64,000 nucleotides of DNA from Candidatus Rhabdochlamydia sp. (GCA_051648645.1 JBOFFP010000003.1:32001-96000), one strand, 5' to 3'; positions 52,157-55,120 are shown, counted from the first letter of the stretch. Made by a program: numbers and translations. The notes: generated from the sequence alone by a model not told the origin.

Positions 52157-55120
52157 ATGCTGACTTTTGAGCAAATTATTGATCGACTTAACGCTTTTTG
52201 GGTTAAACAAAATTGCCTTATTCATCAAGGATATGATTTAGAGGCGGGAGCTGGAATATTCAATCCAGCTACCTTCCTGCGTTGTTTAGGGAAAGAACCT
52301 TATAGAGCGGCTTATGTGGAATCTTGTCGTAGGCCAAAAGATGCAAATTGTGGAAATCTCAATCGACTTCAACGCTCTCATCAATATCAAGTTTTGATTA
52401 AACCGGTACCAACGGATGCGCGTGCTTTGTATCTACACTCTCTTTTTGCATTAAATTTAGATCTTAAAAAACATGACATTCGATTTGTGCATAACGATTG
52501 GGAGGTTTCTTCATTAGGCATCTCTGGGCTGGGGTGGACGATATGGTGTGATGGAATGGAAATTACTCAGTTTACCTATTTGCAAACGGTGGGAGACATT
52601 CCTTTAAAACCCATTAGTGTAGAAGTTACCTATGATTTAGAAAAATTAGCTTTGTTCATTCAAAATAAGACTGCAATTTTTGACATACAGTACAATCATC
52701 TTTTTACTCTTCGCGATTTATTTCTACAAAATGAAACAGAGTGGAGTCATTATCATCTTACAGAAGCCTCCGTTCCTATGTGGCTGCGGCACTTTAATGA
52801 TTATGAACAAGAAATTAAAAATTTAGTAAAAAACAATCTTCCTATTCCTGCATATGATTTTGTAATTAAAGCATCGCATGCTTTTAACCTATTAGATGCC
52901 AGAGGAGCCATTTCCTTTACCGAACGAAATAGCTATATTAGAAGAATTCGCGATTTAACGCATTTAGTAGCTAAAACCATTCTTTTTAGACAAGTTTCTT
53001 TGACAACACCTTCTATAGATGCAAAGTTCCTTATACAAAACCCTTGTTTTAATCCAAAAAATACACAGGATTTTCTTCTTGAAATTGGTTCAGAACAACT
53101 CCCCTCAAGTTTTGTACCTATCGGTTGCCTATATTTGGAAAATGCCATACGCAATTTACTAGAAAACTCGGCATTAGAATTTGAAGAACTGCAAGTATTT
53201 GGAACAACCCAACGCCTAAGTATTTTAGTAAAAGGTCTAGCAGAAGGAACAGATTCCGAGGAAGAACAAATCAAAGGACCTTCAATGGCTATTGCTTTTG
53301 ATAAAAAAGGCAATTTAACAAAACAAGGCAAAGGATTTCTACAGGCATGTAATATTGCTTTTTGTACTTTAGAAGAAGTACTGCAAGAAGAAATCTCTAA
53401 CTTATATATTGTTTCCATGGGTGGAGTTAAATACTTAATTGCCACGGTTTGCACAAAAGGTAAATCTACCTATGCACTATTACAGAAAAAACTACCTTCT
53501 TTGATTATGAGCATAAATTTTCCTAAGAAAATGTACTGGGAAGATCCTTCTATTGAATACGCTCGTCCCATTCGATGGATTCTTGCTTTATTAGGAACCC
53601 AAGTAGTCTCTTTTAATATAGGTAGGATTCAGTCTGGGAACTTCTCCTTTGGCCATTTCCAATTAAGCCCTATTGCCATTGAGATCAACCATCCTAAATA
53701 CTATCTTTCCCATTTAAAAGACCATTATGTATTAGCAGATATGGAAGAGAGAAAAAAGCACATTGAAAAACAAATTAAAATATTAGAACAACAAATAAAA
53801 GGATATGCAATAGAGCAGCTCAAAGTGCTTCCCGAAATATTATACCTCACAGAATGGCCCACCTTAATGCTTGGTTCTTTTGATGTCCAATTCCTAAGAA
53901 TTCCTAAGGAAATAGTTATTTTACAAATAATAAAACACCAAAAATATTTTCCCATGATCGATCGCCATGATCAATTAATGAATGCATTTATCATTACTAT
54001 TGATAACCAGCCTAATCAAGAAATACTCTTGGGACACGAAAAAGCTCTTTTCTCCTGCTTATCTAATGGGATTGCCCTTTATGAAAAGGAGCTTTATGCT
54101 CCGCTCGAGTTGACTTATTATAAATTACAAGATGTGTGCTATCAGAAAAATTTTAAAAACCTCTGGAATAAAGTAGAGAGGCTATCTCTAATAGCAATAC
54201 TGATTCACCAATACTTAAAGATTGCAGAATATAGGCATGTACAAAGAGCCGCCCTTTTAAGCAAATCAGATCTTTGCTCCGCACTTGTTAATGAGTTCCC
54301 CGAGCTACAAGGAATTGTTGGTAAATACTACGCTCTGGCACAAAATGAAGAATCTCAAGTAGCTATAGCTCTTGAAGAACAATGGCTGCCTACATCAAAA
54401 AATGACTCCATCCCTAAAACTCCCACTGGCATAATCTTAAGCCTATCAGATAAAATTGACGACCTTATTAATTGCTATAGTCTTTCCAACGATCTCCAGC
54501 CACTACGTAAACAAGCCATTGGGATCATTCGCATTCTTCTTAAAAATAAAATTAGCTGCAATTTGAATCTTTTGTTGCTAAAAACTTGTCATTTTTTTCC
54601 CATAACAAATAAAAAAAAAGCGACACAGACAATTATAGCTTTCATCAATATTCGTAAAAAATCAGTCTTTGAGGAATTAGGTTTCAGAAAAGATGAAATT
54701 GAAGCTATTACATGGATAAGTCCCCATGATCCTTTTGATCAATTGTGCAGACTAGAAGCTTTTCATATCTTTTGCAAATCTAAAAAAAAGTTCTCTTGCT
54801 TTATTGAGATCTACAAGAGAATTAAAGGACAAATGCATAATAGCTCCTCTATCTTTCATCGAAGGCTTATTACAGAACCAGCTGAAAAAAAATTGCTCCA
54901 AGAATACACGCTAATCAGTAAAGATTGGCCTAAACTCTTAAAACAAAAAAAATACCTTGAGGCTTTTGAATTACTTATAAAATTGCAATCTCCTCTGGAA
55001 GAACTTTTTAAAACCGTAACAATCCTTACAGATAATAAGATCTTACGTGGAAATAGACTCGCTCTCTTACGAAAAATTCTTATTCTATTTGAATCTTTAA
55101 TAGATTTTAGTCACTTTTGA
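52157..55120 (+). CDS. glyQS: Fused glycine--tRNA ligase alpha/beta with strongly degenerate active-site motifs
   Basis: HQGYDLE.GAG.FNPATF, GMEITQFTY, KASHAFNLLDARGAIS, FLLEIGSEQLP, RPIRWI and EFPELQG; syntenic near pgsA/glgA and dnaG. Confidence 0.92.
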   Translation: MLTFEQIIDRLNAFWVKQNCLIHQGYDLEAGAGIFNPATFLRCLGKEPYRAAYVESCRRPKDANCGNLNRLQRSHQYQVLIKPVPTDARALYLHSLFALNLDLKKHDIRFVHNDWEVSSLGISGLGWTIWCDGMEITQFTYLQTVGDIPLKPISVEVTYDLEKLALFIQNKTAIFDIQYNHLFTLRDLFLQNETEWSHYHLTEASVPMWLRHFNDYEQEIKNLVKNNLPIPAYDFVIKASHAFNLLDARGAISFTERNSYIRRIRDLTHLVAKTILFRQVSLTTPSIDAKFLIQNPCFNPKNTQDFLLEIGSEQLPSSFVPIGCLYLENAIRNLLENSALEFEELQVFGTTQRLSILVKGLAEGTDSEEEQIKGPSMAIAFDKKGNLTKQGKGFLQACNIAFCTLEEVLQEEISNLYIVSMGGVKYLIATVCTKGKSTYALLQKKLPSLIMSINFPKKMYWEDPSIEYARPIRWILALLGTQVVSFNIGRIQSGNFSFGHFQLSPIAIEINHPKYYLSHLKDHYVLADMEERKKHIEKQIKILEQQIKGYAIEQLKVLPEILYLTEWPTLMLGSFDVQFLRIPKEIVILQIIKHQKYFPMIDRHDQLMNAFIITIDNQPNQEILLGHEKALFSCLSNGIALYEKELYAPLELTYYKLQDVCYQKNFKNLWNKVERLSLIAILIHQYLKIAEYRHVQRAALLSKSDLCSALVNEFPELQGIVGKYYALAQNEESQVAIALEEQWLPTSKNDSIPKTPTGIILSLSDKIDDLINCYSLSNDLQPLRKQAIGIIRILLKNKISCNLNLLLLKTCHFFPITNKKKATQTIIAFINIRKKSVFEELGFRKDEIEAITWISPHDPFDQLCRLEAFHIFCKSKKKFSCFIEIYKRIKGQMHNSSSIFHRRLITEPAEKKLLQEYTLISKDWPKLLKQKKYLEAFELLIKLQSPLEELFKTVTILTDNKILRGNRLALLRKILILFESLIDFSHF

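Follow-up and report, generated by a model that had tools for sequence, protein, structure and literature searches.

A displaced bacterial-type glycyl-tRNA synthetase kept throughout Candidatus Rhabdochlamydia, probably for something other than charging tRNA

Glycyl-tRNA synthetase (GlyRS) occurs in bacteria as two unrelated types, whose patchy and near-exclusive distribution is an acknowledged puzzle. The bacterial type is found as an alpha2beta2 enzyme, as in Escherichia coli (7eiv, 7yse), or as the fused (alpha-beta)2 GlyQS of chlamydiae, plastids and some other bacteria (7xjy, 7lu4; PRK14908), and the archaeal/eukaryal type is an alpha2 enzyme. According to the accessible part of a survey (bioRxiv 10.1101/2023.05.29.542759), both types were found together in 1 of 542 proteomes, that of Haloactinopolyspora alba, and the combination was called extremely rare. 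In this study, a stretch of 64,000 nucleotides from Candidatus Rhabdochlamydia sp. (GCA_051648645.1, JBOFFP010000003.1:32001-96000), hereafter the window, was analysed. It carries at 52157-55120 on the plus strand a single open frame of 987 codons for a fused bacterial-type GlyRS (glyQS), and this old enzyme, judging from its sequence, probably now does something other than charging tRNA.

Compared with the described fused enzymes, the glyQS product of the window has the same domain order and length and is a vertical orthologue in the ancestral neighbourhood. It differs from them in falling below the fused-form and alpha-subunit model cut-offs, in having ATP/Mg2+ ligands replaced and the motif 3 Gly changed to Asp, in an acceptor loop that is 6 residues shorter, and in the presence of a second GlyRS in the same genome. 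Compared with the E. coli enzyme, it keeps Q76, Q78, W115, E156, T140 and T158, the HD-cavity residues K364, R367, K394 and D459, and also Q409, R481, R585 and the F652 loop, whereas alpha R69, E134 and R169 are replaced by N, T and K, beta R326, D329 and R482 by C, N and K, and Thr-33 by Ile.

Relatives of class II synthetases that do not aminoacylate exist, one example being HisZ, the HisRS-like regulatory subunit of ATP-phosphoribosyltransferase; proteins of this kind arose by duplication and have known partners. The glyQS of the genus resembles HisZ in that a synthetase fold is selected beside a working canonical enzyme while its adenylation machinery appears degraded. Unlike HisZ, it is the original orthologue, displaced by an enzyme of a non-homologous type, and is full-length with all tRNA-binding domains. 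It also resembles the case of H. alba in that a bacterial-type and an archaeal/eukaryal-type GlyRS share one genome; however, the duality is here fixed genus-wide and functional sites of the bacterial-type copy have diverged, a divergence that the accessible part of the survey does not report. A literature search found no description of a non-catalytic derivative of the bacterial-type GlyRS or of the present case, and the words glycine, synthetase and ligase are absent from the main text of the genomics paper on this genus (PMC9723776). A "cryptic function" of the bacterial-type GlyRS is suggested in the title of PMC8464048.

Functional residues of glyQS and the selection acting on them

The features of glyQS that are referred to below are as follows.

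52157..55120, plus strand: fused glyQS open reading frame (ORF), 987 amino acids (aa), with altered catalytic and acceptor-binding apparatus (Pfam, NCBIfam and PDB alignments)
52157..53011, plus strand: alpha (class II catalytic) domain, residues 1-285 (PF02091)
53069..55117, plus strand: beta part, residues 305-987, with B1-B3, HD and anticodon-binding domains (PF02092, TIGR00211, alignment to 7yse_C)
52256..52258, plus strand: Ile34, equivalent to the glycine amino-group ligand Thr-33 of Aquifex aeolicus (T in 106 of 107 representatives)
52319..52366, plus strand: motif 2 and its loop, residues 55-70, with the equivalents of E. coli alpha R64, D67, R69 and R76; shorter by one residue, and differing between members of the genus
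52538..52540, plus strand: Thr128, equivalent to the Mg2+ ligand Glu134 of E. coli alpha (E in 103 of 107 representatives)
52628..52645, plus strand: class II motif 3, TYDLEK for the consensus TYGLER (G in 106 and R in 106 of 107 representatives)
54056..54067, plus strand: Cys634 and Asn637, equivalent to E. coli beta Arg326 and Asp329 (R and D invariant in 17 relatives)
54461..54511, plus strand: shortened loop H18-19 and the start of helix H19, E. coli beta G473-R482 (spacing comparison)
54818..55024, plus strand: anticodon-binding elements, E. coli beta R585 and the F652-M658 loop, retained

In what follows, G000 denotes the genome that holds the window, G001-G007 are congeners with a full glyQS, and G008 is a ninth member of the genus. 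Both GlyRS domains of the ORF are recognised by family models: PF02091 matches residues 4-275 with 375.1 bits (cut-off 27) and PF02092 matches residues 306-851 with 478.7 bits (cut-off 29.2), and the protein aligns end to end with the fused enzymes 7xjy_A (E 1.3e-166) and 7lu4_A (E 2.1e-161). The PF02091 score compares with 436-489 bits in the 16 relatives that have glyQS as their only GlyRS and a full-length match. Among the curated NCBIfam models that confer the name glycine--tRNA ligase, the fused form (PRK14908, 977.7 against a cut-off of 1244) and both alpha models (PRK09348, 368 against 369; TIGR00388, 351.3 against 361.45) fall below their cut-offs, and the beta model is passed (TIGR00211, 570.1 against 300). 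Since only the beta cut-off is passed, public naming is reduced to a beta subunit: in the neighbouring 90%-identity cluster, whose representative is 89% identical to the G000 protein over the alpha domain, the only label is 'glycine--tRNA ligase subunit beta [Candidatus Rhabdochlamydia sp.]', and annotation by homology may thus mislead here.

The sequence-only reading of this DNA had reported an intact 987-codon frame with a series of motif substitutions, and each of them was found where it had been placed. GAGT reads GAGI; EPSRRP..DGRYGENPNR reads ESCRRPKDANCG-NLNR and is shorter by one residue; DDWE..GAWGLGWEVW reads NDWE..GISGLGWTIW; TYFQ reads TYLQ; and the acceptor motif of the beta chain reads SNDLQPLRK with a 6-residue deletion. 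To place these changes, the best 150 of 4411 matches in a library of 50%-identity representatives were considered, of which 108 cover the whole alpha domain; setting aside the cluster of the genus itself, which is among them, left 107 GlyQ domains for the comparison, and the 42 lacking the full span were excluded. In one instance the description of an eroded catalytic motif holds only in part: the change of GAW to GIS is present, but the lost Trp is only moderately conserved in this column (W 84, S 10, A 4, Y 2 among the 107) and is not catalytic, the catalytic Trp-115 of the A. aeolicus structure being the W of DDWE, which G000 keeps.

In these 107 domains, 38 columns reach a conservation of 95% or more; G000 departs at eight of them (T34I, R64N, G100N, D113N, A122I, E128T, G160D and R163K), and six of its eight departing residues occur in none of the 107 representatives. 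The number of departures among the representatives is 0 in 76, 1 in 17, 2 in 9, 3 in 2 and 4 in 1, and at least 8 in only two, which are stand-alone alpha proteins with 8 and 11. The divergence of the G000 glyQS exceeds chance or ordinary divergence.

Those two stand-alone GlyQ-like representatives, P0110 (278 aa, 11 changes at the 38 columns) and P0133 (277 aa, 8 changes), carry, for example, Ser for the motif 2 Arg, Thr or Ala for E156, and Arg for Q76/Q78; further eroded relatives of GlyQ may therefore exist outside the genus.

Individual sites were mapped by the A. aeolicus and E. coli numbering of PMC4938167, PMC8464048 and PMC9908026, each cited here and below for its accessible text, together with a residue-level alignment to 7yse_C, and the eight genus members G000-G007 were compared with 17 glyQS-only relatives, one row of which is incomplete. 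In A. aeolicus, T33, Q76, Q78, W115 and E156 bind the amino group of glycine and are termed absolutely conserved (PMC4938167). Four of these five, Q76, Q78, W115 and E156, are kept in all eight species, as are the discriminating residues T140 and T158; the T33 equivalent is Ile in seven of the eight, G000 included, and Thr in G004. Overall, 7 of 9 glycine-pocket residues are preserved in the genus, and so are the alpha dimer/CCA helices.

The residues that handle ATP behave differently from the glycine pocket. In E. coli, alpha R64, D67, R69, R76, E134, E141 and R169 were assigned to ATP/Mg2+ binding by mutagenesis or structure, and alanine at these positions lowered glycine activation 11- to 985-fold (PMC8464048). 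All seven are replaced in at least one species of the genus, in a mosaic that differs from species to species, while each is kept by 16-17 of the 17 glyQS-only relatives. The Arg of motif 2 (R64) is Lys in G005 only; D67 is Asn in G002 and G005; R69 is N, S, H, S or K across five species; R76 is Cys in G001, G005 and G006; E141 is Lys in G007; the Arg of motif 3 (R169) is Lys in G000 and G002; and E134 is replaced in all eight, by Lys in seven and by Thr in G000. In addition, the motif 3 Gly is Asp and F142 is Leu in all eight species. In the beta chain, where Arg326 of E. coli contacts the gamma-phosphate and Asp329 supports it (PMC8464048), D329 is Asn or Ser in all eight species and R326 is Cys in G000 and Tyr in G002. 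In G000 itself, motif 2 thus retains its Arg, motif 3 has Lys with Asp in place of the preceding Gly, and the Mg2+/gamma-phosphate ligands R69, E134, beta R326 and beta D329 read N, T, C and N. Replacement affects 7 of 7 ATP/Mg2+ sites, compared with 24 of the 98 remaining invariant columns of alpha (Fisher p = 1e-4) and 2 of the 9 residues of the glycine pocket (Fisher p = 0.003). The earlier statement that near-invariant glycine- and ATP-binding positions are changed is borne out, and these changes are not standard among orthologues, the 17 glyQS-only relatives and two further genomes described below (G099, G198) being orthodox.

On the tRNA side, the loop H18-19 of the E. coli beta chain enters the acceptor stem at its major groove and reads U73 (PMC9908026). 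The spacing from D459 to R481, which includes this loop, is 16 residues in all eight genus members and 22 in the 17 relatives, G099 and G198; R482 is Lys or Gln in all eight, and the acceptor motif DPxALRR reads DLQPLRK in G000, so that the full-length U73-reading loop with this motif is absent from G000. The HD-cavity residues K364, R367, K394 and D459 are kept in all eight species together with Q409, R481 and F652, and R585, which contacts C36, is kept in seven and is Cys in G004. The anticodon contacts and the HD cavity are therefore retained in G000 and in 7-8 of the 8 species.

The glyQS ORF is open at 986-988 aa in the eight species G000-G007, the ninth (G008) being cut by a contig end, and the insertions and deletions among the genus orthologues are in frame only. 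The ratio of nonsynonymous to synonymous substitutions (dN/dS) was determined by the Nei-Gojobori method for 28 pairs from the 8 species, with dS of 0.25-1.2. Within the genus, glyQS as a whole gives 0.10-0.16, its alpha domain 0.047-0.124 and its beta part 0.11-0.21, and RpoB gives 0.008-0.022. Against four congeners, glyQS has a value of 0.114, at the median of 13 syntenic neighbour genes (0.04-0.23), the values of pgsA, rlmN and dnaG being 0.052, 0.072 and 0.066. In sliding windows of the alpha domain, residues 51-100, the motif 2 region, show the highest value (0.18), a stretch that is among the most conserved in the relatives, and residues 201-250 show 0.011.

Compared with genomes in which glyQS has no second GlyRS beside it, the constraint is weaker by a factor of about 2-4. 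The sole glyQS-only pair with unsaturated dS gives a dN/dS of 0.052 (alpha 0.022). The dN ratio of glyQS to rpoB has a median of 12.6 in the genus (range 8.4-24.3), compared with 3.9 and 5.7 in two congeneric glyQS-only pairs, and the corresponding ratio of maximum-likelihood (ML) distances is 10.3 within the genus and 2.8 among the relatives. Among the columns invariant in 14 relatives, 6.4% in RpoB, 29.5% in alpha and 31.5% in beta are changed in at least one genus member, and 6.1%, 8.6% and 14.4%, respectively, in all of them. The genomes G018, G026 and G036, which are incomplete or have a partial rpoB, were excluded from the ML distance and invariant-column analyses, and G221 and G253, in which rpoB is fragmented, from the rate baseline. 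In these two single-contig assemblies (G221:C1:208358-212090 and G253:C1:311378-314610), rpoB lies in several frames with internal stops, most likely through assembly indel errors, which is why both were left out. The genus as a whole is fast-evolving and stands on a long RpoB stem branch of 0.29-0.37 substitutions per site. The rpoB of G000 is at C1:151411-155133, and RpoB reaches about 1690 bits in the genus, most relatives having about 1790-1836.

The second GlyRS and the distribution of the two types

A second GlyRS elsewhere in the genome had been conjectured from the window, and a genome-wide search located it: an alpha2-type gene at G000:C6:27201-28568, encoding 455 aa. It lies above the curated NCBIfam cut-offs (PRK04173, 599.5 bits against 312; TIGR00389, 470.8 against 243.3), shows no departure in the 178 columns conserved to 95% or more across 119 close homologues, and has a dN/dS of 0.035-0.085 within the genus. 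The same search found the bacterial-type alpha domain once in G000, in the ORF of the window. The glyQS of the window is thus not the only GlyRS of its genome, and glycylation can have passed to the second enzyme, because an acquired, orthodox alpha2-type GlyRS is encoded there. In two 2-contig assemblies (G002, G007), both GlyRS genes are on contig C1, so that contamination is not the explanation for the duality. The GC content of the alpha2 gene matches the genome, the values at third codon positions (GC3) being 0.249 for alpha2, 0.263 for rpoB and 0.275 for glyQS.

As for its origin, the genus adjoins G012 in the alpha2 gene tree, inside a clade with other family members and with Holosporales-labelled sequences near the base. 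In topology tests on RpoB, a grouping of the genus with G012 was weakly rejected (approximately unbiased test, AU, p = 0.027), and a grouping with the three alpha2-only family members that have rpoB was not rejected (p = 0.30). Either one acquisition with differential loss or transfer within the family may account for this. The order contains two distinct alpha2 clades. Proteins 70-79% identical to the alpha2 GlyRS of the genus are labelled as Holosporales/Holosporaceae, Elusimicrobia, Alphaproteobacteria and Simkaniaceae metagenome-assembled genomes, which suggests either that intracellular bacteria have exchanged the gene or that bins are mislabelled.

Of 41 related genomes, glyQS is the only GlyRS gene in 17 and alpha2 in 13; both occur in 9 and neither in 2, the last two being 84% and 58% complete. 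Both genes are present in all 9 sampled genomes of the window's genus. One of these, G008, looked like an alpha2-only genome before a partial glyQS was recognised at the end of its contig C6, which begins inside the gene; its bases 1-1212 match window 53913-55123 with 75% identity. With the G000 protein as query and no positive control, a search for glyQS remnants at E up to 1 in five alpha2-only family members found none.

In an even sample of the order, the alpha domain is present in 187 of 250 genomes and alpha2 in 64 of 251, and a cross-tabulation made by hand from the listed rows gives 7 genomes with both, namely five members of the window's genus, G099 and G198; outside the genus, one type thus comes close to excluding the other. 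G099 and G198 belong to different families (G099:C26:124000-128700, locus L121; G198:C11:196800-201100, locus L122), and their glyQS is orthodox at all 29 functional sites scored, with a full-length loop. Their duality may reflect recent acquisition, a stable dual system or bin contamination, which is about 2% in each. Two genera are mixed for GlyRS type: in g68 (family f3) some species have glyQS and others alpha2 (G172, G203, G227 and G235 versus G071, G184, G211 and G219), and in g140 (family f29) G222 differs from G206. It seems that GlyRS has been displaced recently and repeatedly in the order. In G250 (family f43), the alpha domain is matched only at E 3.2e-115, with two matches in the genome, which could represent a split or diverged glyQ.

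Interpretations of the retained gene

The account that we favour on balance is that glyQS is a displaced synthetase retained as a catalytically crippled protein that binds tRNAGly or glycine. The alpha2-type GlyRS elsewhere on the same chromosome would have taken over glycylation. Most related lineages that gained alpha2 would then have lost glyQS, but the window's genus has kept it, full-length and under purifying selection, through a radiation of at least 9 species; selection no longer guards the ligands of Mg2+ and the ATP phosphates, and the acceptor-stem/U73 loop is shorter. The product would be a dimeric pseudo-synthetase. It would still bind tRNAGly, from the anticodon and HD side, and perhaps also glycine, but form hardly any glycyl-adenylate or none, and it would be kept for a binding or regulatory job. 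The displacement context, the retention, the purifying selection, the targeted loss of constraint and the vertical descent are observed; from these we infer the loss of aminoacylation, and the new binding or regulatory role is speculative.

Two features of the data lead to this account. The loss of different phosphate/Mg2+ ligands in different species is the pattern expected once adenylate formation is no longer selected, and the strong conservation elsewhere in glyQS indicates that the protein is still used; a fold under purifying selection, unconserved catalytic residues and a canonical enzyme in the same genome are together the marks of a pseudoenzyme. Given that the genus preserves most anticodon contacts together with the HD cavity and 7 of the 9 residues of the glycine pocket, a tRNAGly- or glycine-binding factor is proposed. 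Its more specific form, in which a genus-wide pseudo-synthetase with a dead ATP site serves as a tRNAGly- and/or glycine-binding sensor, sequestering or hand-over factor beside alpha2, is put forward tentatively, as slightly more apt to prove wrong than right. Of the two fates that the sequence-only reading had offered, retention for a non-catalytic role is the one the data would favour, as far as sequence can indicate, and early decay is contradicted by the eight open frames and by a dN/dS of 0.10-0.16 that equals the neighbour median.

Several observations weigh against the favoured account. The Arg of motif 2 is kept in 7 and that of motif 3 in 6 of the 8 species, conservative changes of R to K may be tolerated, and in E. 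coli the E134A substitution cost only about 11-fold (PMC8464048). G004 keeps T33, D67, R69, R76 and R169, that is, most catalytic residues, so that some orthologues may still make the adenylate. An enzyme that still works could likewise have its glycine pocket under selection. Since the proportion of invariant alpha columns changed in all genus members (8.6%) is little above that in RpoB (6.1%), part of the apparent erosion is lineage-wide acceleration. The residue lists of the Fisher tests come from two papers, and the related species were pooled in them as one "any change" count. The coexistence of both enzymes in G099 and G198 with an orthodox glyQS shows that coexistence alone does not force divergence, and the gene context of glyQS, in the window and in the synteny with congeners, suggests no pathway or partner.

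The strongest alternative, which we consider unlikely although it deserves serious weight, is that glyQS encodes a working, perhaps weaker GlyRS, the two synthetases dividing the labour by developmental stage, stress or inhibitor resistance, with the substitutions tolerated or compensated. Purifying selection that is stronger on the alpha domain than on the beta part would be in keeping with this, as would the four glycine amino-group ligands and the discriminating Thr residues, the motif 2 Arg of seven species, and the two genomes in which both enzymes have orthodox sequences. Each of the three G000 tRNA-Gly genes also retains U73 and the standard pairs G1:C72, C2:G71 and G3:C70. As a guide to which enzyme charges tRNAGly these genes are uninformative, the tRNA-Gly(GCC) sequence being 99% identical across relatives of both GlyRS types. 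However, ATP/Mg2+ ligands that are invariant in the 17 relatives and present in 103-107 of the 107 GlyQ domains have been lost in a species-specific manner, the pattern to be expected once catalysis is no longer selected, and in E. coli alanine substitutions at several of them carried a cost of 11- to 985-fold (PMC8464048). Furthermore, the acceptor-stem/U73 loop is 6 residues shorter and the curated equivalog cut-offs are missed.

A new chemistry or substrate is improbable. The enzyme would in this case act on another small amino acid or acceptor, on a different nucleotide, or on pre-formed Gly-tRNA. The changes D113N, A122I, F142L and G160D were fixed once and are conserved in all eight species, which looks more like a functional shift than drift, and the Glu134 equivalent is likewise replaced in all eight (Lys in seven, Thr in G000); a Lys at the Mg2+ site and an Asp beside the motif 3 Arg would be expected to remodel the phosphate pocket. 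The remaining phosphate ligands, however, differ by species, which argues against a conserved nucleotide-dependent chemistry, and no pathway is suggested by the gene context. No vacancy is evident either, since AlaRS, the closest relative of the fold, is present with an orthodox score (696.7 bits); a replacement of AlaRS by the altered GlyQS was for this reason rejected.

That glyQS is a pseudogene in waiting, functionless since its displacement with a frame not yet broken, is very improbable and close to refuted: the constraint is weaker than in the relatives, most lineages that gained alpha2 are without glyQS, and the five alpha2-only family members searched yielded no remnant, but eight open frames of about 2.96 kb and a ninth partial one, with only in-frame indels and a dN/dS of 0.10-0.16 at dS up to 1.2, would hardly survive a neutral divergence that should have given a 3-kb frame many stops, and the ratio is far under the threshold of 0.3 at or above which, according to the accessible text of PMC9723776, cryptic pseudogenes are flagged in this genus.

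If the pseudo-synthetase account is true, glyQS would represent this "orphan" synthetase's first non-catalytic descendant and a preserved intermediate in the non-orthologous displacement of an essential translation enzyme. The genus would then show a possible sequel to replacement, in which the old enzyme is neither lost nor functionally duplicated and its ATP-handling residues are released under retention. It would offer a natural experiment both on the course of essential-gene displacement and on which parts of an (alpha-beta)2 GlyRS serve a non-charging function. The genus has cultivable members, and the question is directly testable by standard synthetase assays.

Gene neighbourhood and further observations

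The genes that flank glyQS in the window are as follows.

49687-50280, minus strand: pgsA, upstream neighbour (syntenic in G002, G005, G006 and G007)
50371-51411, minus strand: rlmN, upstream neighbour (syntenic in G002, G005, G006 and G007)
56137-57138, plus strand: dipeptidase-like gene, downstream neighbour (synteny)
57105-58889, minus strand: dnaG, downstream neighbour (synteny)

All four flank glyQS in the four congeners G002, G005, G006 and G007, and subsets of them do so in glyQS-only relatives, pgsA or rlmN, for example, adjoining it in some. The full-length gene is therefore in its ancestral position, as had been supposed, its neighbours being common to congeners and glyQS-only relatives. 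In the glyQS tree the genus groups with G009, G010 and G016, and in the RpoB tree it adjoins G010. Because the same relatives appear in both trees and the neighbourhood is held in common, the glyQS of the genus is vertically inherited.

Upstream of glyQS, in 51300-52300, no riboswitch or T-box was matched by Rfam at E up to 1, and promoter-like and terminator-like sites at glyQS were not above those in shuffled sequences. Contigs from RNA libraries (three runs of two studies) cover glyQS at a depth like that of its neighbours; the intergenic regions are covered too, possibly through DNA carry-over, and this cover is therefore no evidence of transcription. Bins without contig cover, such as 55213-55826 in runs X17 and X18, carry no information. 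One contig of run X17 runs from 51675 straight to 55169 and so would skip exactly glyQS and its upstream spacer; its depth is 23.6, that of the main form about 5000. The join is unreliable, with 22 letters on the shorter side at a likeness threshold of 90%, and its source may be a repeat or a different organism.

Outside the window, at G000:C3:213500-213661, there is a tandem pair of identical tRNA-Gly(GCC) genes separated by 18 bases. The tandem is also found in relatives with either GlyRS type (G010, G016, G018, G027, G032 and G039) and has accordingly no link to the glyQS finding.

Directly after glyQS, at 55170-55994 on the minus strand, is an ORF of 274 aa made of repeats of roughly 33 residues (…HLEI.K.L..S..FKNIY..DLR..L.E..K…). 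It is without a reciprocal-best orthologue in the four congeners compared, and contigs of the related strain in runs X17 and X18 are nearly absent over it; the ORF looks like a variable repeat protein.

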